From contig DATDHG010000047.1 in assembly GCA_036521675.1 (NCBI GenBank), positions 1 through 48,687 on the forward strand: DNA of 48,687 bases, given 5' to 3'. The notes below the pieces were generated by a model. That model worked only from the letters and a program-made list of their open reading frames with translations, made no database searches and had not been told where the DNA came from. Origin of the DNA: Candidatus Dormiibacterota bacterium. Lineage in GTDB: Bacteria; Chloroflexota; Dormibacteria; Aeolococcales; Aeolococcaceae. A program made the position numbers and the translations under genes. Position 1 is the first letter of the stretch. Every line of letters begins with the position of its first letter. Shown here piece after piece: positions 2,843 through 42,294 of this stretch.

Positions 2843-4432
2843 CTAGTGGCGAGCCCGGGACGCGCGGTGCCAGTCCTCCAGAACGCGGTCGCGGTCAAGG
2901 CGGGGGAAAAGGATCTCCCCCACCCCCACCGGGTTGCCGGGGACGAGGACGTCGAAGCGCCGCGCCGCCTGCCCGGCTCTGCCATCGAGGGCGACGCCCA
3001 GGTCGTCGGCGACGCGGCGCGTCGCGCGCGGCGCAAACGGATGGAGCAGGGTCGTCGCCACCCGGATGGCCTCGAGCAGGTGATGCAGGACGGTATCGAG
3101 CCGCCCGTCCTGCTCGCGCGCCATGTGCCACGGCTTGGTCTCGTCAATGTACAGATTGGCGCGGGCCACCAGCCGCTGGGCTGCGGCGATGGCGCCACTC
3201 AGGTCGATCGAGTCCATCGCCGCGGCATGTTCCGCGACGGCGCGCAGCGCGACCGCCTCCAGGTCGGCGTCGAGGGCGGTGTGCGGCCCCGGGACCGGGA
3301 CGCGCGCCTGGCGATACCGCTGGGTCATCTTCTCGGTGCGCGACACCAGGTTCCCGTAGTCGTTGGCGAGGTCGGCGTTGTACCGGTCGACGAATGTCTC
3401 GAGCGAGAAGTCGCCGTCGCGATCGAACGGCACCTCGCTGAGGAAGACATAGCGCACCGCATCGCTGCCGAAGCGCTCCACCAGCGTGGCGGGGTCGATG
3501 CGGACGCCCGAGCTCTTGCTCATCTTCCGACCCCCCAGGGTGATGAAGCCGTGGGAGTGCACCCGGGCGGGCAGGGCGATGCCGGCCGCCATGAGCATGG
3601 CGGGCCACATGATCGTGTGGAAGCGGGTGATGTCCTTGCCGATGACGTGGACATCGGCGGGCCAGAACCGGGCGAACTCGGCGTCGTCGGCCGCGAAGCC
3701 CACCCCGGTGATGTACGCGGGCAGGGCGTCGAACCACACGTAGGCGACCTGCTCGGGATCGAAGGGCAGTGGGAACCCCCAGGCGGTGAAGCCGCGCGAG
3801 ATGCTGATGTCCTCGAGGCCGGCGCCGATGACGTTGAGCATCTCGTTGCGACGCGAGCCCGGCGTCAGGAAACCCGGCTGCTCGGCGAAGAGGCGGAGCA
3901 GCGGTTCCTGGAAGGCGCTGAGGCGGAAGAACCAGTTCTCCTCCTCCACCCACTCGACGGCGCTGCCGTGTACCGGACAGTGGCCGTCGATGAGCTCCTT
4001 CTCGGTGTAGAACTGCTCGCAGGACGGGCAGAACCAGGCGGCGTACATCCCCTTGTAGATGTGTCCGCGTTCGTGAACGGTGCTCAGCAACCGCTCGGTC
4101 GTACGCCGGTTGGCCGCACCGCTCGTGCGCACGAAATTCGTGTAGGTGATGTCCAGCCGCTCGAAGAGGGCCTGGAACACCGCCACCTGGCGGTCGCAGA
4201 ACGCCGCCGGATCGAGCCCCTCGGCCCGCGCCGCCCGCTCCACCGACTGGCTGTGCTCGTCACTCCCGACCGTGAAGCGCACCTCGGCGCCCTGAAGGCG
4301 ATGGTGCCGGGCCAGCGCGTCGCAGCCCACCTTCTCATAGGCGTGCCCGAGGTGGGGATCGCCGTTGACGTAGTCGATCGCTGCAGTCAGGTAGAAACGG
4401 CCGTAATGGGCCGCAACAGGCGGATCGCTCAC
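2843..4432 (-). CDS. metG: methionine--tRNA ligase
   Basis: This is part of ORF 2843..4759. Motifs are the HIGH-type DPHLGHAYEK, a literal KMSKS (GGRKMSKSSG) and the zinc knuckle CPSC...CPVHG. The start GTG 4432 overlaps the rsmI stop (GTGA). The stop codon is TAG. Confidence 0.95.
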   Translation of the reverse strand: MSDPPVAAHYGRFYLTAAIDYVNGDPHLGHAYEKVGCDALARHHRLQGAEVRFTVGSDEHSQSVERAARAEGLDPAAFCDRQVAVFQALFERLDITYTNFVRTSGAANRRTTERLLSTVHERGHIYKGMYAAWFCPSCEQFYTEKELIDGHCPVHGSAVEWVEEENWFFRLSAFQEPLLRLFAEQPGFLTPGSRRNEMLNVIGAGLEDISISRGFTAWGFPLPFDPEQVAYVWFDALPAYITGVGFAADDAEFARFWPADVHVIGKDITRFHTIMWPAMLMAAGIALPARVHSHGFITLGGRKMSKSSGVRIDPATLVERFGSDAVRYVFLSEVPFDRDGDFSLETFVDRYNADLANDYGNLVSRTEKMTQRYRQARVPVPGPHTALDADLEAVALRAVAEHAAAMDSIDLSGAIAAAQRLVARANLYIDETKPWHMAREQDGRLDTVLHHLLEAIRVATTLLHPFAPRATRRVADDLGVALDGRAGQAARRFDVLVPGNPVGVGEILFPRLDRDRVLEDWHRASRARH

Positions 4433-5956: not shown

Positions 5957-6875
5957 GCCGCAGCCGCGCTGTCTCGCGGTCGAGGAGGTCGGGCCGGGCG
6001 TCGCGCAGCAGGGGCGTGGCGAGCCGGGCCCGGCGCACCGCCCCGCGTTCGAGGCGGTTCCAGACCAGGGCCTCGTCCGACCCGGCCGGCTCGTGCAGCG
6101 TCTCACCGTCGGGACCCAACACACGCGAGCCGCCCCAGAACCCCACGCCGTCCTCGAAGCCGACGCGGTTGCAGTAGACCACGTACGCGGTCGTGAGCTG
6201 CGCATACGTCCTGGTCATCGCGTCGTAGGAGCGCGCTGTGCCAAGTCCCGCGCCGTCGCGCACGCCGCGTCCCGGAGAAGCGCTGGGAACGATCAGCACC
6301 TCCATGCCCTGACGGGCGAGCAGCGCGATCGCCCCGAGGTGCCAGATGTCCTCGCAGATGAGCATCCCGGCCTGCCAGGGGCGCGCCAGGCCGGCCGCGG
6401 GCGGCGTGAGCTCCAGGGTGCGCAGCCGCTCGCCGGCGGCCAGGTACCGCTGTTCGTCGAACAGCCCATAGGTGGGCAGGAACACCTTGGCGTGCAGAGC
6501 GGCCACCCGCCCGCGGCTCAGATGGACTGCGGCATTGAGGAAGCGGGCGTCACCGGTCTCCAGCACACACCCGACCACCGCGTCGACCTCGGTGCACGCG
6601 GCCGCCAGGGTGGCGAGCTCGGGACCGTCGAGGACGACGGCCACGTCGGGCACCAGGTCGCGCAGGAAGTAGCCGCAGAGGCTCATCTCCGGGAAGACGA
6701 CCAGGTGCGCGCCGCCGCGCGAGGCGTCCTCCAGGATGCCCAGATGGGTTTCGAGGTTGGCGCTGACGTCCCCCAGTCGCGGGGCGATCTGCGCGCACAC
6801 CGCAACAAAGCCGTCCGGGGCACTCGGGGTGAGCTGCGCGCGGCCGGCGCTGGGCAGGTCGCCGGGAAGGGTCAT
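5934..6875 (-). CDS. carbon-nitrogen hydrolase (nitrilase-superfamily), probable glutaminase partner of NadE
   Basis: ORF 5934..6875. The Glu-Lys-Cys triad contexts are [22 protein letters not shown] and MLICEDIWH. The ATG overlaps the dinG stop (ATGA). Confidence 0.85.
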
Positions 6876-9820
6876 GCCACTCCTTGGTCGTCGGGGTGGA
6901 GCGAGTCGTCGAGATCGAGCGCGGGAACGCCGGGCACTGCGAGCCGCAGCCCGTCTGGGATTCTGCCGGTTGCGACGAAATCGCCGACGACTGAGCCTGC
7001 GGTGGAGATCGTCGCACTCACCACCGTAGCCTCGGGCAGGGCGCGCAGAAAGGTCGCACCGTAGTCGCGGTTGAGGACGCGCGCATCGCAGAGCACGACG
7101 ACGCCGCGCTGGTCGCCGCGGCGAATGAGCCGGCCGAAACCCTGCTTGAGACGCAGCACGGCGGTGGGCAGGGCCAGCTCGCTGAACGGATCGCTGAGCT
7201 GCGCAGCGCGCGCCGCTGTGAGCGGATCGCTGGGGACAGGGAACGGGAGCTTGGCGATCACCACGCAGCCCAACGCGTCACCGGCGATGTCCACGCCTTC
7301 CCAGAAGCTGCTCGTGCCCAGCAGAACGCTGCGCTGATTCTGCAGGAAGGCGGCCAGGACCTGGCGCCGCGTGCCATCGAGGCCCTGGCCGAGCACGGCG
7401 ACGCGATCGGCCTCCAGGGTTTTGCCGAGCTGCTGGTGCACGCTGCGCAGCGGGGCGTATGCAGTGAACAGCGCCATGGTCCGCCCACCCAGACGCCTGG
7501 CCACGTCGGCGATCAGGGCCGCGAGCTCGCGGTCGTACCCGGCGGCGTCGTAGGGCGGCATGTCGGACAGCACCACCGTGAGCGCCTGGGTCAGGTAGTC
7601 GAAGGGTGACGCCAGGCGCAGGGTCGCGGCGCCGCGCATCCCCGTGCGCGCGGCCACGAAGTCGAAGGCGCCGGCCACCGAGAGCGTGGCCGACGTGAGC
7701 ACGGCCGCGCTGGTGCGCTCGAAAACGTGCTCGGCGAGCGCATCGGCCACCGCGATGGGGGCCTCGTGGAGCTCCCCCTGCTCGGCGCGCAGCTCCAGCC
7801 AGGCCACGTATCCCGCGCGCGGCTCGAGGAGCACCCGTCCGATCGCGTCCGCGTGAGCGCTCAACGCCGCTGCCGCCAGGGCCAGTTCGTCGTCCCCGCG
7901 ATCCGGCTGGGGGAGCAGCGCCGTCTGCAGCGGCGCCGCGCCCCGCGCGTCGAGCAGGGTGGTGGCTGCGCGACGCAGCCGCAGCGCGGCTGACTGCGCG
8001 GCACGGAGCACCGGCGCCAGCTCGGCGGCGGCCCGCAATTCGTCGCTCAGCCCGACCACGCCGTTGCCCGGGCTGTCACTCCCGAGCAGCCGGCCGATGT
8101 GTCCCTTGACCTCGCCGAAGAGGCGCACTGCCGCCTCGCGCGCGCTCGCCAGCGCGGTGGCCAGCTCCTCGGAACCGGCGGCCGGCTGGCGCAGGCGGTC
8201 GACCACGGTGAGCACGTCGGCGGCCCGCAGCCGCGTGCCGAGCTGGCGCGTGGCGGTCTCCTCGAGGTGCTGCGCCTCGTCGACCACCAGGGCGTCGTAG
8301 CCGGCGAGAACGCGGCCCTGCCGCTCCCAGTCGGCCACCAGCAGCGCCTGGTTGACCACCGCGATGTCCGCCTGGGCAGCGGTGCGGCGGGCGGCGACCA
8401 TGTAGCACCCTCCGTCCCTCCAGTTGGCGCACGCCGCGCCCAGGCAGTCGTCGACGGTGGACTCGACGCGCCGCCACAGCTCCTCCTCGACGCCCCCCAG
8501 GCGCAGCTCGGCCCGATCACCGGTGTGCGTCTCGCCGAGCCAGCAGAGCACGCGAAGCACGAAGCGAACGGAGTCGTGGTCCGGCATGCGGCCCTCCGTC
8601 GGGGTCGCCGAACCCAGGTACCTCTGCCAGCGGCGCAGGCTCAGGTAGTGGTGACGGCCTTTGAGCATCGCCGAGCTCGCCGGGATGCCGAGCCGGGCGA
8701 GCAGCGCGGGCAGGTCGCGCTCGGCCAGCTGTTCCTGAAGGGTGACGGTGTGGGTGGCCACCACCGCGCGCCGCCCGGTGCGCGCCGCCCAGAGCGCCAG
8801 CGGGGTCAGGTAGGCGATCGACTTGCCCGTCCCCGTCCCCGCCTCGACGAGCAGCCGACCGCTGCGTTCCAGCGTCTGCGCGACCGCCCGCGCCATCTCC
8901 ACCTGGGCCTCGCGGAGCTCGTAGCCGGGCAGCCCGGACGCCAGCGGGCCGCCGGCGCCGAGCGCGCGCGCCGCCGCCTCGGGGAGCGGGATGGCCCGGT
9001 CGAGGAGGGGGCTGGGGCTGTCGACCGGCGCCCGCGGCATGGGCTGCGCCCCCGCGCGCGCGGGCTTGAGCGGATCGCCGCCACCACCGACCAGCTCGGA
9101 GAAGAAGCCCGTCAGAGGCATGCCGAGGGGGCGCAGGAGGCCGCGGATGGTGGCCAGCAGCGGGGCCGGCAGAGCCTCCGCCGCCTCGATCAGCCGCAGC
9201 AGGACGCCGCGGGTGGCGTCGGCGTCGCTGCCGGCCCGATGGGGGCGTTCGTGCTCAACTCCGAGCGCGGCGCTGAGGAGCGGCAGACTGTGGCTGGAGG
9301 CGGTGGGCAGAAGGATGCGCGCCAGCTCCAGGGTGTCGAGGCTGGGACGCCGCCCGAAGATCTCGGGAAGCAGCGCCGCGCAGAAAGCCAGGTCGAACGG
9401 CGCCCCGTGGGCGACCAGTTGGGCGGATTCGGCGAAGTCGGCCAGCATGGCGACGGCTTCGGCGGGGGATGATCCACCCCGCAGGTCGGCGTCGCTCAGC
9501 CCGGTGAGGCGCTCGATGGCGAGCGGCACCGGCACGCCGGGGTCGACGAGCACCTCCAGCCGGCCGCGGACCTCACCGGTGGGAGTGAAGCGCACGGCGC
9601 CGATCTCGATGATGCGGTCGCTCTTCGGGGAGAGGCCGGTGGTCTCGAGGTCGAAGGCGACCAGGTCGCCCCGGGGCGCGGCGGTGGAGCTCAGCAGACT
9701 GATGGATACACGCCCCGGTAGCGCTCGGGGAGCAGGCTCGCCACCCGCGCCATGATCTCGTCGGCCGCCTCCTGGCTGGTCACCCGGCGGCCATCGGGAT
9801 GGTGGCGCTGCACCGGGCAC
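6872..9820 (-). CDS. dinG: DinG-family ATP-dependent helicase with N-terminal DnaQ-like 3'-5' exonuclease domain
   Basis: ORF 6872..9820. Exonuclease motifs are AFDLETTG, HGAPFDLAF and HRAGSDADAT. Helicase motifs are Walker A EAGTGTGKS and DEAQHLEE. A Cys cluster (LCW...DDCLGAACANWRDGGC) is consistent with an XPD/DinG Fe-S site. The 5' end is uncertain: GTG 9820 overlaps plsC by 130 nt (see finding). Confidence 0.85.
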   Translation of the reverse strand: MPGAAPPSRWPPGDQPGGGRRDHGAGGEPAPRALPGRVSISLLSSTAAPRGDLVAFDLETTGLSPKSDRIIEIGAVRFTPTGEVRGRLEVLVDPGVPVPLAIERLTGLSDADLRGGSSPAEAVAMLADFAESAQLVAHGAPFDLAFCAALLPEIFGRRPSLDTLELARILLPTASSHSLPLLSAALGVEHERPHRAGSDADATRGVLLRLIEAAEALPAPLLATIRGLLRPLGMPLTGFFSELVGGGGDPLKPARAGAQPMPRAPVDSPSPLLDRAIPLPEAAARALGAGGPLASGLPGYELREAQVEMARAVAQTLERSGRLLVEAGTGTGKSIAYLTPLALWAARTGRRAVVATHTVTLQEQLAERDLPALLARLGIPASSAMLKGRHHYLSLRRWQRYLGSATPTEGRMPDHDSVRFVLRVLCWLGETHTGDRAELRLGGVEEELWRRVESTVDDCLGAACANWRDGGCYMVAARRTAAQADIAVVNQALLVADWERQGRVLAGYDALVVDEAQHLEETATRQLGTRLRAADVLTVVDRLRQPAAGSEELATALASAREAAVRLFGEVKGHIGRLLGSDSPGNGVVGLSDELRAAAELAPVLRAAQSAALRLRRAATTLLDARGAAPLQTALLPQPDRGDDELALAAAALSAHADAIGRVLLEPRAGYVAWLELRAEQGELHEAPIAVADALAEHVFERTSAAVLTSATLSVAGAFDFVAARTGMRGAATLRLASPFDYLTQALTVVLSDMPPYDAAGYDRELAALIADVARRLGGRTMALFTAYAPLRSVHQQLGKTLEADRVAVLGQGLDGTRRQVLAAFLQNQRSVLLGTSSFWEGVDIAGDALGCVVIAKLPFPVPSDPLTAARAAQLSDPFSELALPTAVLRLKQGFGRLIRRGDQRGVVVLCDARVLNRDYGATFLRALPEATVVSATISTAGSVVGDFVATGRIPDGLRLAVPGVPALDLDDSLHPDDQGVA

Positions 9821-15304: not shown

Positions 15305-16219
15305 AGCGTCCCCGCGCGGAGCCGTCGACTCCGGGCCAGGCGCCGTGGGCGGCTCCGCCCCAGTGGGGTCGCCGCCGGGCTGCTTCAGCGGGGTGCCGAG
15401 CCGCATCTTCTCGCGCAGCCGGCGCAGGAAACTCGGCGACTCCTGCAGGTGCACCACCTCCAACTCGGGTCCGGGGTCGATCATCACACGCATGCCCGCG
15501 CGAAGCGCCACCTCGAGGTAGCCGTCCGCGATCGCGTAAGCGCGGCCGTGGACCAGGGTCACGGCCAGGCTGGTCACCTCCGGGAGGACCACTGCCCTGG
15601 TGAGCACGGCGAAGGCGGCGAGGGGCACGACTGTGACCGCGCGCACGCGCGGATCGACCGGCGGGCCCCCGGCGCTGAGCGCGTATGCGGTGGAGCCGGT
15701 GGCGGTGGCGACGATCACGCCATCGGCGTCGAACTCGCCGAGCAGCTCGCCGTCGGCATCGACGCGCAGGCGCGCCAGGTTGGTCCCGACCGACCTCACG
15801 ACGACCTCGTTGAGGGCATGGGCGTGCGCCTGAAGCGGGCCCGCGGGATCGTCTCCGGGCACGCTCAGCTCGAGGAGGGAACGGCGGTGACTGTGCGCCC
15901 GACCGTCCAGGAAGGCGCGCAGCGCCGCTGGCAGGGCACTCACCTCGATGTCCGTGAGGAAGCCGAGCTGGCCGCGGTTGGCGCCGAGCACGGGGACCCC
16001 GCGTGGGCCTGCCAGCCGAGCGCCGAGCAGGAACGTCCCGTCGCCGCCGACGGTCACCAGCAGCCGGCAACCCCCGAGGCGCTCCCCGAGAACCTGCTCG
16101 GGGTTCTGGCAGGCGACCCAGGCCACCAGCTCGTGGGCCTCCACGACCGTCAGCGCCTCGGCGAGCGCCGCCTCGCTCTCCCGAGGGTGGAGCAGGAAGC
16201 CGACGCTGGGGGCATTCAC
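15302..16219 (-). CDS. nadK: NAD kinase
   Basis: This is part of ORF 15302..16333. Motifs are VTVGGDGTFL, NRGQLGFLT and ATGSTAYALSAGGP. The start GTG 16219 overlaps the tlyA stop (GTGA). The stop codon is TAG. Confidence 0.9.
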   Translation of the reverse strand: MNAPSVGFLLHPRESEAALAEALTVVEAHELVAWVACQNPEQVLGERLGGCRLLVTVGGDGTFLLGARLAGPRGVPVLGANRGQLGFLTDIEVSALPAALRAFLDGRAHSHRRSLLELSVPGDDPAGPLQAHAHALNEVVVRSVGTNLARLRVDADGELLGEFDADGVIVATATGSTAYALSAGGPPVDPRVRAVTVVPLAAFAVLTRAVVLPEVTSLAVTLVHGRAYAIADGYLEVALRAGMRVMIDPGPELEVVHLQESPSFLRRLREKMRLGTPLKQPGGDPTGAEPPTAPGPESTAPRGDA

Positions 16220-16974
16220 CGGGCGGCCCCCTTCAGGGTCAGATGGATCAGCCACTCCCGGTTGCCCTTCTGACCGGTGATGGGCGAAGCGAGCGGTCCG
16301 CTCCCACCCGCCCCCAGCTCTGCGCCCGCCCATGCCAACAGGGCGGTGGCAGCCGCCTCCCCGGCAGCGGGGTCACGGACGATCCCGTTCCGCCCCACCT
16401 GATCGCGCCCGAGCTCGAACTGCGGCTTGACCAGGGCGATCACCTCCCCGCCCGCCGCGGCCAGCGCGGCCACTCGGGGGAGCACCAGGCGCAACGAGAT
16501 GAAGGACAGGTCGAGCGTGGTGAGCGCGGGCGGCTCCCCGGGGAGCGAACGCAGGCTACGAAGATTGGTGCGGTCGAGCACCCGCACCCGCCGGTCGGTC
16601 GCCAGGCGCTGGACCAGCTGGCCATAGCCGACGTCAACGGCGTAGACCATGGCGGCGCCCCGGCTCAGAAGCACGTCGGTGAAGCCGCCGGTGGAGGCGC
16701 CCGCGTCGAGGCAGGTCCTCCCCCCCACGTCAACGCCGAACCCTTCGAGGGCTGCGGCCAGCTTGATCCCTCCCCGGCTGGCCCAGGGGTGGTCGCGACC
16801 GGTCACCACCACCGCCACAGCATCGCTGATCCGCTGCGCGGCGCTGCGCGCGGGGGCCTCCCCAAGTCGCACCAGGCCGGCGGCGATGAGCGCCTGGGCG
16901 CGCTCGCGCGAGGATGCCAGCCCCCGCTCCACCATGGCGAGGTCCAGGCGCTGCCCTCTGGCCGGTGTGGTCAT
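16216..16974 (-). CDS. tlyA: TlyA-family rRNA (cytidine-2'-O)-methyltransferase
   Basis: This is part of ORF 16216..17034. It has the S4-like RLDLAMVERGLASSRERAQALI and the FtsJ-type SAM site CLDAGASTGGFTDVLL. The start ATG 16974 is preceded by GGGGAGGTGGTC (Shine-Dalgarno). The longer start at 17034 remains possible. Confidence 0.88.
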   Translation of the reverse strand: MTTPARGQRLDLAMVERGLASSRERAQALIAAGLVRLGEAPARSAAQRISDAVAVVVTGRDHPWASRGGIKLAAALEGFGVDVGGRTCLDAGASTGGFTDVLLSRGAAMVYAVDVGYGQLVQRLATDRRVRVLDRTNLRSLRSLPGEPPALTTLDLSFISLRLVLPRVAALAAAGGEVIALVKPQFELGRDQVGRNGIVRDPAAGEAAATALLAWAGAELGAGGSGPLASPITGQKGNREWLIHLTLKGAAR

Positions 16975-17046
16975 GACCACCTCCCCGTCAGGCGCATGCG
17001 CGGTGCCCACAGGCGGTTCGGCGAGGTCGGGCACGGCGCCGGCGTC

Positions 17047-17529
17047 TCAGAAGGGGATGTCGTCGAGGTCGAACTCGGCGGCCTCGTCGGAAGGGGGCGG
17101 CGCGGGGCCCGGCTCCAGGCCCCCGAAGAGCCCGGGAGCCGCTGGCGCGCCGGCTTCCGAGGCAGCGGGTTGAGGTCGCTGGGCGCCGCGGGCCCGCAGC
17201 GGCGCGGTCGGCGGGGGCGGGGCCACGGGGGGTGCGGTGGCGCGCGCCGGGCGGACGGCAGCCCCGGAGGCCGCCCCGGCCGCGCCACCCCCGGCCGAGA
17301 AGGGCCGCTCCTCGACAGTCCCCTGGGCGCCCACCACCAGCTGGGTGACCGCCGCCTCGGTGCTGTCGAGCAGGGCCGCACACCGCTGCGCGAGCTGGGA
17401 GCCGCGCTGATAGGCGTTGATCGCGTCGTTGAGATTGATGTCGCCACGCTCGAGCTGAGCGATGAGCAGGTCGAGCTCCGCGAGCGCCTGCTCGTAGCTG
17501 AGGGTTTCGACGTCGCTGGTCGTGCTCAT
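17047..17529 (-). CDS. xseB: exodeoxyribonuclease VII small subunit with long disordered C-terminal extension
   Basis: This is part of ORF 17047..17541. The XseB core is LSYEQALAELDLLIAQLERGDINLNDAINAYQRGSQLAQRC. The ATG at 17529 is preceded by GGTGGAGTCAGCC. About 90 extra Gly/Ala/Pro-rich residues follow the core and end in FDLDDIPF. Confidence 0.85.
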   Translation of the reverse strand: MSTTSDVETLSYEQALAELDLLIAQLERGDINLNDAINAYQRGSQLAQRCAALLDSTEAAVTQLVVGAQGTVEERPFSAGGGAAGAASGAAVRPARATAPPVAPPPPTAPLRARGAQRPQPAASEAGAPAAPGLFGGLEPGPAPPPSDEAAEFDLDDIPF

Positions 17530-17602
17530 GGCTGACTCCACCGCCTGGCATCGGGCCCGGCGTCAACATCGTACATACGTTCGCGACCGCCGTCGAGATC
17601 GG

Positions 17603-18940
17603 TCAGGATTGCACCACCCGGCTGCGCAGCTCGCCGTCGGCGAGGCGGGTGGTGAGCAGGTCGCCCGCAGCGGCGCCGGCGGCGCGGCGGAGCACGGCCC
17701 CGCCCGCGTCCATGGTGATGGAGAATCCGCGCTCGAGCACCCGCTGCGGCGAGAGCGCCTCGAGCCGGGCCGCGGCGGTGTCGAGGCGGGCGCGGCGCGC
17801 GGCGAGCACCCGCGCGGCAGCTGCGCCGAGGTCGCCGCGCCGGCGGCGCAAGGCCTCGCGCTCGCCGGGGAGGCGCCGCTGCGGGGACGCCAGGCGCAGC
17901 GCGGCGGTGGCGGCGTCGAGACGGCGCCGCTTCTGGCCCACCTCGGCGAGCGCGGCGGCTCGCAGCGCGGCCATCCGGCCGTCGAGCCGCTGGCGGAGCG
18001 CGGGCAGCCGCCGCGACGGCGACACCGCGGCCAGGCGGTCCTCGAGGCCCGCCAGGGCGCGACGCTGCGCGGCCAGCTCCGCCCGCAGGCCGCTGCGCAA
18101 CCGCTGGTCACGCGCCAGCAGCTCCTCCCGCAGCGCCCCGAGATCCGGGACGGCGATCTCGGCCGCGTTTGACGGCGTGGCCCCGCGCCGGTCGGCCGCC
18201 AGGTCGGCGATTGTCGTGTCCGTCTCGTGCCCGATGCCGGTCACCACCGGCACCCGCACCGTGCGGATCGCCCGCGCGACGTCCTCCGACTGGAAGGCGG
18301 CCAGGTCCTCGAAGGACCCACCGCCCCGCACGAGCAGGATGACCTCCACCCCGGGCAGCCGCTCCGCCGCGCGGAGGGCGCGCACGATCGAGGCCTCGGC
18401 GCCCTCGCCCTGCACGGGGGTAGGCACCACAACCACCCCCACCGCGCGAGCGCGCCGGCGCGCCACAGTGACCACGTCACGCACCGCCGCGCCCGTCGAC
18501 GACGTCACCACCGCAACCCGTCGCGGGAGCAAGGGAAGCGCCCGCTTGGCGGCGACGTCGAAGACGCCCTCGGCGGCCAGGCGCCGCTTGCGCTGCTCCA
18601 CCGCCAGCGCGATGGCGCCGATGCCGGCCGGCTCCAGGCCGTCCACGTAGAGCTGGTAGCTGCCCTCGGCATCGTACACCTCGACGTGGCCACGCGCGAT
18701 CACCGTCATCCCGGCCTCGGGGTGAAACGGGATGCGCACCGCGTTGCTCCGAAAGCAGACGCAGCGCAGCTGGGCGAGGGCGTCCTTGAGCGTGAAGTAG
18801 AGGTGTCCGCTGCCGGGATTGCGCAGATTGCTGAGCTCTCCCTCGACGAGCACGTCCTCCAGTGCGGGGGCCGCGGCCAGAGCGCCGCGCACCACGCCGG
18901 TGAGCTCGGACACGGTGAACGGGACCCGGGCTGCCGTCAT
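17603..18940 (-). CDS. xseA: exodeoxyribonuclease VII large subunit
   Basis: This is the C-terminal 446 codons of ORF 17603..19393. It has the OB-fold N-terminus FTVSELTG...LYFTLKD, plus VVTSSTGAAVRDV, RGGGSFEDL and TGIGHETD. The ATG at 18940 overlaps the nusB stop (ATGA). Confidence 0.9.
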   Translation of the reverse strand: MTAARVPFTVSELTGVVRGALAAAPALEDVLVEGELSNLRNPGSGHLYFTLKDALAQLRCVCFRSNAVRIPFHPEAGMTVIARGHVEVYDAEGSYQLYVDGLEPAGIGAIALAVEQRKRRLAAEGVFDVAAKRALPLLPRRVAVVTSSTGAAVRDVVTVARRRARAVGVVVVPTPVQGEGAEASIVRALRAAERLPGVEVILLVRGGGSFEDLAAFQSEDVARAIRTVRVPVVTGIGHETDTTIADLAADRRGATPSNAAEIAVPDLGALREELLARDQRLRSGLRAELAAQRRALAGLEDRLAAVSPSRRLPALRQRLDGRMAALRAAALAEVGQKRRRLDAATAALRLASPQRRLPGEREALRRRRGDLGAAAARVLAARRARLDTAAARLEALSPQRVLERGFSITMDAGGAVLRRAAGAAAGDLLTTRLADGELRSRVVQS

Positions 18941-19398
18941 CGGTGGCCGTTGCGGACCGCGCTGGCGGCCCCGGTGGCGATGTGCCCGAGCACTCCGTTG
19001 ACGAAGGGAGCGGCCTCGCTGCCGGCGTAGGTGCGGACCAGCTCGATGGCCTCGTCGATGGCCACGCCCACGGGGATGTCGGGCACATACAGCAGCTCGT
19101 ACGCACCGAGCCGCAGCACCGCGCGCTCCACCTTGCCGATCTCCTCGAGACGCCAGTTGTCGCTGGCGCCGCCGATGGCGGAATCGACCGCGGCGCCGGC
19201 GGCCAGTGTGCCCGTCACCAGCGCGCGGGCGTGGTCGACGACGTCGCGGGTCGCTCCCAGGTCCTCCGCCTGGTAGAGAAGCGCCTCCTCGGCATCGCGC
19301 TGCGTGCCCTCGAGCTCGAAGAGGACGCGCAGCGCCAGCTCGCGCCCCCGATGGCGACGGCCGGCGCCGCCCTCCCGCCGGCGGGGGCCGCACGTCAA
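18937..19398 (-). CDS. nusB: transcription antitermination factor NusB
   Basis: This is the C-terminal 154 codons of ORF 18937..19908. Motifs are RELALRVLFELEG, AVLRLGAYELLY and EAIELVRTYAGSEAAPFVNGVLG. The start TTG 19398 overlaps the asp23 stop (TTGA). Confidence 0.86.
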   Translation of the reverse strand: MTCGPRRREGGAGRRHRGRELALRVLFELEGTQRDAEEALLYQAEDLGATRDVVDHARALVTGTLAAGAAVDSAIGGASDNWRLEEIGKVERAVLRLGAYELLYVPDIPVGVAIDEAIELVRTYAGSEAAPFVNGVLGHIATGAASAVRNGHR

Positions 19399-19790
19399 CT
19401 GAAGGCGACCTCGCTGACGAAGACGTTGACCTCGTGCAGCCCCAGGCCCAGCATGCGATCGATGGCGTCGGCCACCTTGCGCTGCACCTCGGCCCCCATC
19501 CGCGGCAGGTCGGTCCCGGCCTCCATGACCACGTAGAGGTCGAGCCCCAGGCTGTCGTCGTCCCTCAGCTCCACCCGGACGCCGCGATGGGCGCCGGAGC
19601 GGCGCAGGATGCGGTCCAGCTGGCCCTGGTTGCCGCTGGCGTGGTACATGGCGTGCACCCCGCCGACCTCCAGCGCGGTCAGCGCAGCGATCTGCGCGAC
19701 CACCTCGTTGGCCACACGGGTGGCGCCCAGCCGCTGGCGGCCGTCGTCGCCGGGGATGTCGAGCTGGTCGGGGATGGCGGTGTCGGTCAT
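19395..19790 (-). CDS. Asp23/Gls24-family envelope stress protein
   Basis: ORF 19395..19790. Motifs are VANEVVAQIAALTALEVGGVHAM, VRVEL...LGLDLYVVMEAG and VNVFVSEVAF. Confidence 0.82.
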   Translation of the reverse strand: MTDTAIPDQLDIPGDDGRQRLGATRVANEVVAQIAALTALEVGGVHAMYHASGNQGQLDRILRRSGAHRGVRVELRDDDSLGLDLYVVMEAGTDLPRMGAEVQRKVADAIDRMLGLGLHEVNVFVSEVAFS

Positions 19791-39584: not shown

Positions 39585-41036
39585 TCAGTACGCGCGGGCG
39601 ATCAGCGCGATGTGCTCCGCGGGCTGCCCGCAGGCGAGGCAGGGGGCGCCCTCGGCGCGGCGGTCGGCGCGCAGGCAGCGCACGGTCACCGCGTGGACCG
39701 CCGCCTTGACGCGGTCCTCGCACTCAGGGCGGTTGCAGAAGGGCGCGTTGGCGAACACCGGCTCGGTGGCGAACGCCTGGCGGAGGCCGTCGAGGTCGCT
39801 CACCTCGCGCGAGCGTTCCGCCAGCAGGGCCTCAGAGCGCGCGCGGATCGTGGCCTGGGCCTCGTCCAGGAGCCCTGGCAGCCGTGCCTCGAGCCCGTCC
39901 AGCGGCAGCACCTGCTGGGCGCCGTCGACGCGCCGCACCACGGTCACGTTGCCGTCGGCCAGGTCCTTGGCGCCCAGCACCACGCGCAGCGGCACGCCGC
40001 GCAGCTCCCAGTGGGCGTACTTCTCCCCGGGGCGGATGCCGTCGCGGCGGTCGACACGCAGCCTTACTGTGTCCGCCGTCGCGCGCTCGATGTGCTCCAC
40101 CGCGGCATCCACCGCGGCGCCGCCCTCGGGATCATTGCTCCTGGTGATCGGGACGACGATGACCTGAACTGGAGCCACCCGGGGCGGCAGCACCAGGCCG
40201 CGGTCGTCGCCGTGGGCCATGATGACCGCGCCGATGATCCGCGTCGACAACCCCCACGACGTCTGGTGGGGGTGCTGCAGGGTGTTGTCCCGGCCCGTCA
40301 CCGCGATGTCGTAGGCGCGCGTGAAGTTCTGGCCGAGGTGGTGCGAGGTCCCCGACTGCAGGGCCAGCCCGTCCGACATGATGGCTTCGATGCTGACCGT
40401 ATACTCCGCGCCGGCGAACCTCTCCGACTCCGTCTTGCGGCCCGCGACGACCGCCATCGCCAGCCAGTCCTCGGCCAGCGCCCGGTAGCAGCCGAGCATG
40501 CGCTCGACCTCCTCGGCGGCCTCGGCGTGGGTCTCGTGGAAGGTGTGGCCCTCCTGCCACCAGAACTCCATGGTGCGCAGGAACAGGCGCGTGCGCTTCT
40601 CCCAGCGAACGACGTTGCACCACTGATTGATGAGCACCGGGAGGTCGCGCCAGGACTGCAGCCAGTCGCGGTAGAGCGTGCAGATGATCGTCTCGCTGGT
40701 CGGCCGCACCGCCAGGCGCTCCTCCAGCTCCTTGCTGCCGCCGTGGGTGACCCAGGCGACCTCGGGGGCGAAACCCTCGACGTGCTCGGCCTCTTTGGCG
40801 AGGAGCGACTCCGGGATAAACAGCGGGAACTGCATGTTCTCGTGCCCGGTGGCCTTGATCATGCCGTCGAGCGCGTCGCGGGTCCGCTCCCAGAGCGCCC
40901 ACCCATAGGGCCGCACCACCATGCAACCGCCCACCGGCGTGTAGTCGGCAAGCTCAGCGCGCAGCACGGTTTCCACGTACCAGCGATCGAAGTCCTCGCT
41001 CTTGGGCGTGATCGCCTTCTCGTCGCGCTTGCTCAC
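39585..41036 (-). CDS. proS: proline--tRNA ligase, archaeal/eukaryote-like type (no INS domain; C-terminal zinc-binding domain)
   Basis: This is the C-terminal 484 codons of ORF 39585..41192. Motifs are DFDRWYVETVLRAELADY, VRPYGWALWE, RTMEFWWQEGHTFH and the Cys-containing C-domain (FCNRPECE...CLACGQP). The protein ends in ...ARAY. The start is GTG 41036; the upstream part of the ORF overlaps ispG. Confidence 0.9.
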   Translation of the reverse strand: MSKRDEKAITPKSEDFDRWYVETVLRAELADYTPVGGCMVVRPYGWALWERTRDALDGMIKATGHENMQFPLFIPESLLAKEAEHVEGFAPEVAWVTHGGSKELEERLAVRPTSETIICTLYRDWLQSWRDLPVLINQWCNVVRWEKRTRLFLRTMEFWWQEGHTFHETHAEAAEEVERMLGCYRALAEDWLAMAVVAGRKTESERFAGAEYTVSIEAIMSDGLALQSGTSHHLGQNFTRAYDIAVTGRDNTLQHPHQTSWGLSTRIIGAVIMAHGDDRGLVLPPRVAPVQVIVVPITRSNDPEGGAAVDAAVEHIERATADTVRLRVDRRDGIRPGEKYAHWELRGVPLRVVLGAKDLADGNVTVVRRVDGAQQVLPLDGLEARLPGLLDEAQATIRARSEALLAERSREVSDLDGLRQAFATEPVFANAPFCNRPECEDRVKAAVHAVTVRCLRADRRAEGAPCLACGQPAEHIALIARAY

Positions 41037-41106
41037 CGCGGCCCGAGTATATGGAGGCCGGCGGGCGCCGCCGCCCCGCCCGCTCCTGGGCTGCTGAGGC
41101 CGGGCT

Positions 41107-42294
41107 CTACGCCGGGTCGGCCAGCACCGGCAGCGGCTGCAGCGGGGTGGGCGTCTCCCCCAGCCCAACGGGCAGCTCGCGCCCTTCGGCAAGGAGCCGC
41201 GCGTCCTCGGCGGCCACCGCCTCCAGCTCCTCGACGAGGGCGTCGATGAGCTGCGCCTCGGGCAGCGTCGCGACCACCCGGCCGTTGCGGAAGAGTGCTC
41301 CCTTCTGACGGCCGCCGGCGATGCCGATGTCGGCGTGCATGCCCTCCCCGGGCCCGTTGACCACGCAGCCCATGACCGACACGGTGAGCGGCCGGCGCAC
41401 CCGGTGGAGCGCCTCCTCGACCCGCGCGACCATGGGATTCATGTCGATCTCCAGCCGCCCGCAGGTCGGGCAGGCGATGAGGTTGGGCCCGCTGACCTGC
41501 GCCTGCAGGTTCTGGAGGATCTGGCGCCCCACGCGCACCTCCTCCTCGGGCTCGCCCACCAGGGACACGCGGATGGTGTCGCCGATGCCCTCGGCCAGCA
41601 GGACGCCGATGCCCATCGCCGACTTCACCGAGCCGCTGAGCACGGGCCCGGCCTCGGTCAGACCGAGGTGGAGCGGATAGCCCTTGGCCTCCTTGGCGAA
41701 CAGCCGGTTGGCAGCCAGGTTGGTGGGCACGTCGCTCGCCTTGAGCGAGACCTTGACCATGCCTAGCCCGAAGCCCACCTCCTCCAGCAGCCCGATGTGA
41801 TGGAGGGCCGCGTCGACCATCCGCCGGGCCGTCTCGTCGAGGCTGGCGCCCCGGCCCTGGGCGAGCTCCTTGCGCCCGGGGATGCTCCCCGAGTTGACGC
41901 CGATGCGGATCGGCACCGCGCGCCGCCTGGCCTCACTGGCGATGTCGCGCACCTTGGCGGGGTCGCCGATGTTGCCCGGATTGAGGCGCAGGCACTGCAC
42001 CCCGGCGTCCAGGGCGGCCAGGGCCAGGGGGGCGTCGTAGTGGATGTCGGCGACGATCGGCACAGGTGATTCGGCCACGATCGTCCGCAACGCCACGGCG
42101 GCTTCCTTGGTGTCACAGGTGACCCGAACCAGGTCGGCACCGGCCTCGGCGGCGCGCCGTATCTGGGCGATGGTCGCAGCGGCGTCCTCCGTCTGCGTCT
42201 TGGTCATCGTCTGGACGCTGATCGGCGAGGCGCCTCCTATGACTACGCCGCCGACGTTGACGGGCACCGTGCGGCGTCGCGGCGGGATGGCCAT
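41107..42294 (-). CDS. ispG: 4-hydroxy-3-methylbut-2-en-1-yl diphosphate synthase
   Basis: ORF 41107..42294. It has a TIM-barrel N-domain (RVTCDT, RLNPGNIG) and the Fe-S Cys contexts ACPTCGR and MGCVVNGPGE. The stop codon is TAG. Confidence 0.95.
   Translation of the reverse strand: MAIPPRRRTVPVNVGGVVIGGASPISVQTMTKTQTEDAAATIAQIRRAAEAGADLVRVTCDTKEAAVALRTIVAESPVPIVADIHYDAPLALAALDAGVQCLRLNPGNIGDPAKVRDIASEARRRAVPIRIGVNSGSIPGRKELAQGRGASLDETARRMVDAALHHIGLLEEVGFGLGMVKVSLKASDVPTNLAANRLFAKEAKGYPLHLGLTEAGPVLSGSVKSAMGIGVLLAEGIGDTIRVSLVGEPEEEVRVGRQILQNLQAQVSGPNLIACPTCGRLEIDMNPMVARVEEALHRVRRPLTVSVMGCVVNGPGEGMHADIGIAGGRQKGALFRNGRVVATLPEAQLIDALVEELEAVAAEDARLLAEGRELPVGLGETPTPLQPLPVLADPA

Follow-up and report, generated by a model that had tools for sequence, protein, structure and literature searches.

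Here, we describe an exonuclease VII (ExoVII) small subunit, XseB, whose C-terminal extension ends in a copy of the tip of its lineage's own single-stranded DNA (ssDNA)-binding protein (SSB), ...D-[L/P]-D-D-I-P-F-COOH. The gene, xseB, lies on a contig of a Candidatus Dormiibacterota bacterium (DATDHG010000047.1), analysed as a stretch of 48,687 nucleotides that we refer to as the window. In bacterial genome maintenance, the SSB C-terminal tip (SSB-Ct) serves as the chief address label and, to our knowledge, has so far been treated as a property of SSBs and a few phage proteins. A preliminary description of this DNA had proposed that ExoVII carries an SSB-tip mimic not described before, and a full-text search of the literature, with most subscription-journal papers outside its reach, likewise returned no description of an XseB or ExoVII with an SSB-type tail. 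Both the enzyme subunit and the docking peptide are known; it is their combination and its polarity that are undescribed in the literature searched. The presence of this label on a cellular repair nuclease, in more than 100 sequence clusters and two unrelated clades, indicates that the label is portable, and suggests that the SSB network can be wired oppositely, with the enzyme bearing the peptide rather than the pocket.

An ExoVII small subunit with an SSB-type terminus

The xseB frame comprises 160 open codons from ATG to TGA, with GGAG 6 nt 5' of the ATG and a start that fits the N-termini of homologues. Its product matched Pfam Exonuc_VII_S (PF02609) over residues 12–62 (E 4e-14, 52.7 bits against a cut-off of 24) and the NCBIfam equivalog TIGR01280 (xseB) at 60 bits against a cut-off of 35. 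AlphaFold2, run on a 41-sequence alignment, placed two helices at residues 12–28 and 33–66 with pLDDT of about 95, and the closest solved structure was the XseB chain of E. coli ExoVII (8TXR), to which only residues 10–66 align. The gene for the large subunit, xseA, lies directly 5' of xseB in the window, as it does in 48 of the 54 related loci whose flanks reach far enough and in locus L242, and the order xseA-xseB-tlyA is conserved among related loci. Because sequence, fold and synteny all agree, the protein belongs to the XseB family, and the gene is a genuine xseB encoding an ordinary ExoVII small subunit plus an intrinsically disordered linker. The ordinary hairpin that the preliminary description saw in the first ~70 residues is thus borne out by Pfam, TIGR01280, AlphaFold2 and 8TXR alike. 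Pfam detected no PF00436 or other OB domain in the 160-aa protein; as an XseB without an OB fold it is therefore not an SSB, and carries only the SSB-Ct module.

XseBs are normally short, as had also been stated, with a typical end at ~75–100 aa. In the window protein this ordinary end is marked by ERPF (residues 74–77), in which E74 is invariant across the family and R75, P76 and F77 are conserved at 74–91%, and the tail is therefore an addition past that end. Residues 78–160, linker and tip together (83 aa), consist to 67% of Pro, Ala, Gly and Ser. Past residue 66 the AlphaFold2 model has pLDDT of 45–74 and no secondary structure except for a 3-residue helical turn at residues 155–157. Two islands stand out from the otherwise variable linker: a proline-arginine stretch in which R112, A113 and R114 are each ~84% conserved, and a hydrophobic stretch at residues 133–140 whose family consensus reads (G/A)LFPGLEP, LLPGL or EQRLFGE. 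A beta-clamp-binding motif has the form QL[SD]LF or QLxLxL, with Gln at position 1 and Leu or Phe at positions 4–5. We considered the second island as such a motif and found the support too thin for that claim: compared by eye with the consensus, Gln occurs in one subclade (EQRLFG), the others read LLPGL or ALPGLEP, and mostly just an x-L-F core is shared.

The final codons, ttc gac ctc gac gac atc ccc ttc tga, encode FDLDDIPF-stop at 17073..17047. The preliminary reading of this terminus stands; the span given for it, 17070–17047, trivially missed the true start one codon earlier. The tip follows the SSB-Ct pattern, with a hydrophobic residue at −3, acidic residues at −4, −5 and −7, and Pro-Phe at the extreme C-terminus, and the linker before it is of low complexity and disordered by prediction, as in SSB-Ct. 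Composition, the AlphaFold2 model and the conserved terminus agree with the SSB-like architecture of disordered linker and acidic tip that had been proposed. An example of the XseB tail peptide is PSDEAAEFDLDDIPF.

Among 5.8 billion proteins searched, 165 relatives were found, and the figures that follow rest on the best 120 of these. All are long (92–181 aa), 119 end in [DE][DE][IV]PF and 115 in DDIPF; the single exception, P0006, lacks the tip and may be truncated. From local amino-acid composition, a C-terminal [DE][DE][IV]PF is expected by chance at ~2.5e-6 per protein. Residues D156, D157, I158, P159 and F160 are 96–99% conserved, with a terminus consensus of [FIV]-D-[LP]-D-D-I-P-F. Tail length varies from 14 to 106 aa, and the frame, with no stop or frameshift past residue ~75 in the relatives, is always kept to the same terminus. 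The named relatives are 'Candidatus Dormibacteraeota/Dormibacteria' metagenome-assembled genomes (MAGs). An independent DNA set, drawn from JGI metagenomes and seeded by the hairpin motif rather than the tail, comprised 77 XseB-containing loci: 64 carry the strict tip, four a relaxed one (NEIPF, ADVPF, GDVPF) and two are long tip-less ORFs (L190, L178), while the seven most distant are ordinary XseBs of 75–77 aa.

At the DNA level, 41 distinct tip strings were found in which every tip position varies synonymously (Pro as CCC, CCG, CCT or CCA; Phe as TTC or TTT; Ile as ATC, ATT or ATA; Asp as GAC or GAT), and TGA, TAG and TAA stops all occur after the tip. The constraint is therefore on the peptide and not on the DNA. 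The exact window XseB sequence has no record in public assemblies, and we compared it instead with P0001, a 92% identical relative whose three independent assemblies agree in the 160-aa product and in the neighbouring genes. There are no indels between the two, and synonymous and non-synonymous codon differences number 12 and 2 in the domain, 18 and 11 in the tail, and 1 and 0 in the tip.

Long spurious ORFs are common in DNA of 73% G+C, and the codon-position GC of the tail (GC1/2/3 = 0.87/0.75/0.87) is indecisive here, as it cannot discriminate coding in low-complexity DNA of this composition; the tail might on these grounds be taken for read-through of GC-rich non-coding DNA or for an assembly frameshift. 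Such an artefact is vanishingly improbable given a frame that stays open across linkers of unlike length and reaches an invariant terminus in over 100 clusters, the excess of synonymous changes, and the identical product of the close relative in its three assemblies. These comparisons exclude read-through of non-coding DNA and show a tail that is translated and kept by purifying selection. Three outcomes had been named in advance as counting decisively against the idea, namely a stop or frameshift in the tail, a DIPF terminus that is not conserved among orthologues, and an unrelated tip on the SSB; none of them overturned it.

The lineage's SSB tip and a second tailed clade

To compare XseB and SSB termini, we used two samples of different design. 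In the first, 185,579 species genomes were scanned for D-[L/P]-D-D-I-P-F-stop encoded by high-GC codons, which selects the tip by design; the 41 loci obtained were assigned with domain-only profiles as 26 SSBs, 13 XseBs, of which one is truncated at the end of its contig, and 2 others. The SSBs of Dormibacterota MAGs in this set end ...G-D-[IV]-D-P-D-D-I-P-F. A census not selected for the tip, made by searching with one Dormibacterota SSB and thus describing related Dormibacterota rather than the window's own genome, showed that the best 120 matches (74–99% identical) all end in [VI]DPDDIPF. Among the XseBs, 58 of 121 end in DPDDIPF and 39 of 121 in DLDDIPF, and the longest terminus shared with the SSBs, found in some XseBs such as P0007, is the 10-residue GDIDPDDIPF. 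Both proteins occur together in MAG CAZCJX01 (XseB ...ADIDLDDIPF, SSB ...GGDIDPDDIPF) and in MAG MAS3.bin89 (XseB ...DDIDPDDIPF, SSB ...TDIDPDDIPF), at the locus pairs L139/L147 and L161/L142. The expected agreement with the SSB tip is thus found for the lineage; the window protein itself differs from these SSBs at −6, where it has Leu.

The XseB tail resembles that of SSB (E. coli ...DFDDDIPF) in its variable P/G/A-rich linker, its ...D-D-I-P-F end and its free carboxylate, and the last 7–10 residues of the lineage's XseBs are identical to those of the lineage's SSB. Unlike the SSB tail, it sits on a helical-hairpin nuclease subunit instead of an OB-fold ssDNA-binding core, and would be shown on a rigid protein stalk instead of an ssDNA-bound tetramer. 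The PPPP..RAR and LFPGLEP islands that its linker adds are absent from the lineage's SSB linkers, and the tip is therefore all that XseB and SSB have in common.

The Dormibacterota SSBs themselves fall into at least three types, with a short Ala/Pro linker, with a long Gly/Gln/Tyr-rich linker, and of a 'VVANDVQFLETRGA' type, all of which keep [VI]DPDDIPF (L125, L132, L143, L154 and L160 as against L126, L128 and others). Outside these proteins, a Solirubrobacteraceae MAG (L133) encodes a 123-aa protein ending ...ADVDPDDIPF with no XseB or SSB similarity by profiles, and a Pirellulales MAG (L159) has a contig-end fragment, 31 aa of it visible, ending ...EEDLDDIPF, whose visible 'RIVDCELGP' resembles a phage primase-like group.

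We asked how far the tip extends among XseBs with a HMMER scan of 1.84 billion cluster representatives that used the hairpin only; it found 4254 XseBs, of which the best 150 representatives at 50% identity were inspected. The tip is present in nearly all of the ~30 closest, and beyond these nearly all are ordinary, ~75–100 aa long and tip-less, with scattered distant representatives that have IPF-like ends (P0132, P0138, P0140, P0145, P0200, P0208, P0243). In the ordinary short XseBs (P0121–P0261), P[FL] occurs within the last 22 residues in 49 of 96 and never at the C-terminus; PF, where present, usually stands 2–6 residues before the end, and [DE]x0-2PF is found in 25 of 96. By contrast, Phe is the final residue in every tip-bearing XseB. 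Canonical XseB (E. coli, 80 aa; 8TXR, 1VP7) shares with the window protein the hairpin, the xseA-xseB order and the sub-terminal acidic PF; it ends ~5–15 residues after helix 2 in a disordered acidic stub that is not PF-terminal, whereas the window protein has 83 more residues and the SSB tip. The terminal tip may have evolved from the ordinary sub-terminal P[FL] motif, whose own role seems to be undescribed; the acidic segment that contains this motif is part of what is disordered in the E. coli ExoVII structure.

A second tailed clade came to light in the genome scan, in Thioalkalivibrio (Gammaproteobacteria), with XseBs ending ...NPDPDDIPF (L130, L148). Its ~38 clusters (P0268–P0307), among them T. 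paradoxus and named Thioalkalivibrio sp. entries, have proteins of 79–127 aa with a 25–30-aa linker and a DD[IVT]PF end. The linker has an island of its own, DPNDSTKVPD, followed by xDD[IVT]PF, and these proteins are without the usual internal XseB PF. Their nearest relatives past the clade are ordinary XseBs of 76–89 aa. As the Thioalkalivibrio and Dormibacterota linkers are unrelated, tail and hairpin were apparently fused on more than one occasion. The genus Thioalkalivibrio contains named species with sequenced genomes and is experimentally tractable.

A possible docking role for the XseB tail

Proteins that read SSB-Ct (ExoI, RecQ, chi, RecJ, RecO) lodge its Phe in a hydrophobic pocket, pair its free carboxylate with a basic residue and contact its Asp residues through a basic ridge, and recognition, as seen in the ExoI, RecQ and chi structures, needs a free alpha-carboxylate. 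In E. coli, the nucleases ExoI and RecJ bear the pocket and SSB bears the peptide. Cryo-electron microscopy (cryo-EM) of E. coli ExoVII revealed an XseA4.XseB24 assembly with six XseB hairpins on each XseA stalk helix, XseB far C-termini that are disordered and solvent-exposed, and an autoinhibited holoenzyme that splits or opens upon DNA binding (PMC10835039). By homology to that enzyme, the window XseB would bind the XseA stalk and be needed for nuclease activity (PMC10835039). At 445 aa, the XseA here compares with 456 aa for the E. coli protein, and the number of XseB sites is therefore probably similar.

With the tails in place, up to ~24 flexibly tethered SSB-type docking peptides would project from the ExoVII stalk like a brush. 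These tips could enter the basic, hydrophobic SSB-tip pockets of genome-maintenance proteins such as helicases, nucleases and recombination mediators, which would co-localise ExoVII with, or let it recruit, such enzymes at ssDNA ends, gaps and protein-DNA adducts; the linker islands PPPP..RAR and (G/A)LFPGLEP probably add contacts. Relative to ExoI and RecJ, the polarity would be reversed, with ExoVII carrying the peptide and not the pocket. That ExoVII docks onto, or recruits, SSB-tip-binding enzymes through the XseB tail is the explanation we rate highest, at about even odds. That the receptors would be those of the SSB tail is favoured by the strictly C-terminal Phe, the identity with the lineage's SSB tip and the recurrence in two clades.

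Several observations weigh against such docking. Our analysis identified no binding partner of the tail, and E. coli ExoVII is not known to be in the SSB interactome; we know of no precedent for ExoVII in the SSB network. Mimicry of SSB alone is not enough to place ExoVII on SSB-coated DNA, and any benefit would therefore have to come via third parties, which makes the model less direct. The window's subclade has Leu at −6 (FDLDDIPF) where every retrieved Dormibacterota-type SSB has Pro, and the only SSBs found with VDLDDIPF, sharing the −6 Leu of the window XseB, are labelled Limnocylindria or Chloroflexia. The XseB tip is also slightly more variable than the SSB tip (I/V at −3, D/E at −4, L/P at −6).

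A bolder form of the docking proposal, tentative and one that we would sooner bet against, makes ExoVII a second SSB-like hub. XseB-coated 50-nm stalks with about two dozen tips and two linear motifs would mimic an SSB-coated ssDNA filament and gather the SSB interactome on the nuclease, at DNA ends or topoisomerase-DNA adducts, independently of ssDNA-bound SSB. The supply of XseB would come from a dedicated, possibly damage-inducible xseB promoter (described below), and the arrangement would apparently have arisen separately in Dormibacterota and Thioalkalivibrio.

The most serious competitor to partner docking, in our estimate unlikely, is that the acidic tip binds an OB fold instead of partner pockets, either the N-terminal OB fold of XseA or that of SSB. 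The preliminary description had raised both OB folds, along with partner pockets, as possible targets. On XseA it would act as an ssDNA-competitive auto-inhibitor that reinforces the closed ExoVII state; on ssDNA-free SSB it would tether ExoVII to the SSB pool or its condensates until released by ssDNA. SSB tips do fold back onto their own protein's OB fold and promote condensation of SSB, and the acidic tails of T4 gp32 and T7 gp2.5 are DNA mimics. The window's XseA has an N-terminal OB fold (Pfam tRNA_anti_2), and both the autoinhibition of E. coli ExoVII and its opening on DNA binding (PMC10835039) suit the auto-inhibitor version. A tip common to XseB and SSB is equally expected if the SSB OB fold reads both. 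Yet the contact of the E. coli SSB tip with its OB fold is weak and mostly electrostatic, so that a strict I-P-F-COOH is not obviously needed; the OB fold of XseA belongs to another subfamily than that of SSB; and tails of 14–106 aa imply very unequal reach to the ExoVII head.

Two further explanations appear to us improbable. In one, the tails are decoys: if the count is as in E. coli, up to ~24 tips on each holoenzyme would titrate SSB-tip-binding proteins off SSB and damp or re-route the interactome when XseB is induced, for example by DNA damage, and the invariant LexA-box-like element before xseB suggests separately regulated expression. A decoy has no need for attachment to a nuclease subunit, though, and the linkage to XseB kept in two separate clades argues for a benefit to ExoVII itself; SSB is, besides, normally far more abundant than ExoVII. 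The other, to which we give as little credence, treats the terminus as an internal ExoVII motif that elaborates or duplicates the ordinary [DE]-x-PF and contacts XseA, its likeness to SSB being convergent. The acidic PF frequent near the end of ordinary XseBs (P[FL] and [DE]x0-2PF, counted above) fits this idea, as do the ERPF that the tailed family retains at residues 74–77 and the Thioalkalivibrio XseBs, which lack a separate internal PF as though the motif had shifted to the end. What speaks against it is that 7–10 residues, the unusual D-P-D-D among them, are identical to the SSB tip of the lineage, which is hard to reach by convergence on an internal XseA site, together with a very C-terminal position confined to the tailed clades.

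Docking through the XseB tail has partial parallels in other systems. T7 gp4 and gp2.5 likewise pair a non-SSB enzyme with an acidic tail resembling that of the cognate SSB; the gp2.5 tail uses the same polymerase patches as gp4, and a terminal Phe matters. The gp4 tails bind basic patches of the polymerase (PMC12593628). The T7 case differs in being viral, in serving a replicative helicase-polymerase contact and in tails that are not DDIPF, while that of XseB is cellular and concerns an accessory subunit of a repair nuclease. DdrB is a non-canonical DNA-metabolism protein whose disordered C-terminus has been compared to the SSB one, and its C-terminal motif was reported to be dispensable for radioresistance (PMC3834827); DdrB binds ssDNA itself, whereas XseB alone does not bind DNA. 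For the cellular targeting of ExoVII and the purpose of its XseB-coated stalk (PMC10835039), the tailed variant offers a testable handle.

DDIPF termini also occur in viruses. Among the first 120 ORFs ending DDIPF* in IMG/VR (L001–L120; examples are L053, L075, L078, L081, L085 and L117), 21 were SSB-like and 99 unrecognised with three cellular OB-domain queries, and many of the small unrecognised phage ORFs may be divergent phage SSBs. These proteins differ from the window protein in being viral, and none is an XseB; the occurrence of the tip on phage ORFs not recognised as SSBs makes it a portable module. The phage ORFs include primase-like proteins of 560–680 aa that share '...EW[VI]C..H.GYAR.KAEAWW...'.

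The xseB locus and its upstream element

The features of the protein and its locus are collected in Table 1.

Table 1. Coordinates of the xseB gene, its protein segments and adjoining features in the window
Feature	Position	Strand	Description or basis
xseB coding sequence	17047..17529	-	160 aa + TGA; Pfam and NCBIfam matches above curated cut-offs
XseB two-helix hairpin, aa 12–67	17329..17496	-	Pfam PF02609, AlphaFold2, 8TXR alignment
ERPF, aa 74–77, ordinary sub-terminal XseB end	17299..17310	-	family conservation
Pro/Ala/Gly-rich disordered linker, aa 78–152	17074..17298	-	composition, low pLDDT
Island PPPP-x2-P-x-RAR, aa 104–114	17188..17220	-	conserved in otherwise variable linker
Hydrophobic island GLFGGLEP, aa 133–140	17110..17133	-	column conservation 45–82%
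SSB-type acidic tip FDLDDIPF, aa 153–160, free C-terminus	17050..17073	-	conservation, codon variation
16-nt element CGAACGTATGTACGAT	17568..17583	-	xseA-xseB gap, 38 nt 5' of xseB ATG; candidate −10 and LexA-type operator
xseA, ExoVII large subunit, 445 aa	17603..18940	-	OB fold + catalytic domain + helical stalk
tlyA-like S4/FtsJ rRNA methyltransferase gene	16216..17034	-	Pfam FtsJ + S4; neighbour, outside the feature

A 16-nt element lies in the gap between xseA and xseB. In the form CGAACnnATGTACGAT it is present in 74 of 74 tip-family loci (L123–L241), 30–80 nt 5' of the hairpin start, and in 0 of 8 outgroup loci. Its GAA, TAC and GAT are invariant at a G+C content of at least 70%, and its flanks are poorly conserved. 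In many relatives the xseA ORF runs through the element as a conserved 'E-R/Q-M-Y-D', while in the window it is out of frame and in the gap. Such invariant triplets in high-GC genomes are unexpected for selection at the protein level, and we therefore take the element to be conserved at the DNA level. It overlaps a promoter-like pair, TCGAC[AG]-N17/18-TACGAT, and matches the Gram-positive LexA (Cheo) box CGAACRNRYGTTCG, a palindromic CGAAC-N4-GTTCG, at 13 of 14 positions, with a right half that reads GTAC, not GTTC, in 74 of 74 loci. The pattern CGAACN4GTWCG has a single exact match in the 48.7-kb window, which is this element.

A generic promoter and terminator scan of 16900–17750 returned nothing at its threshold, and an Rfam scan of 16000–19500 gave no credible RNA family. 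Among the fetched loci, lexA and recA were found on phage contigs only and on none of the Dormibacterota loci. A perfect palindromic Cheo-type box, CGAACGAATGTTCG, occurs at ~3366–3379 of a Limnocylindria contig (L122), ~3 kb from an ssb gene whose product ends ...TVDLDDIPF. In the window, recN lies three genes 3' of the element.

The XseA protein matches Pfam tRNA_anti_2 (the N-terminal OB fold) and Exonuc_VII_L (E 6e-92); upstream of its gene lie nusB, asp23, efp and aroQ. On the other side, the tlyA-like gene begins 12 nt after the xseB stop on the same strand, and such a gene stands 3' of xseB in 62 of 77 loci. The downstream genes on this strand encode the tlyA-like methyltransferase, an NAD kinase and RecN. 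No known SSB-tip-binding protein was identified within the window: an ORF at 39585–41192 (-), guessed from gene order to be RecJ, proved by Pfam to encode a prolyl-tRNA synthetase. At 6872–9820 (-), the window encodes a 982-aa DinG-like helicase (Helicase_C_2, DEAD) with an N-terminal RNase_T-type exonuclease domain.

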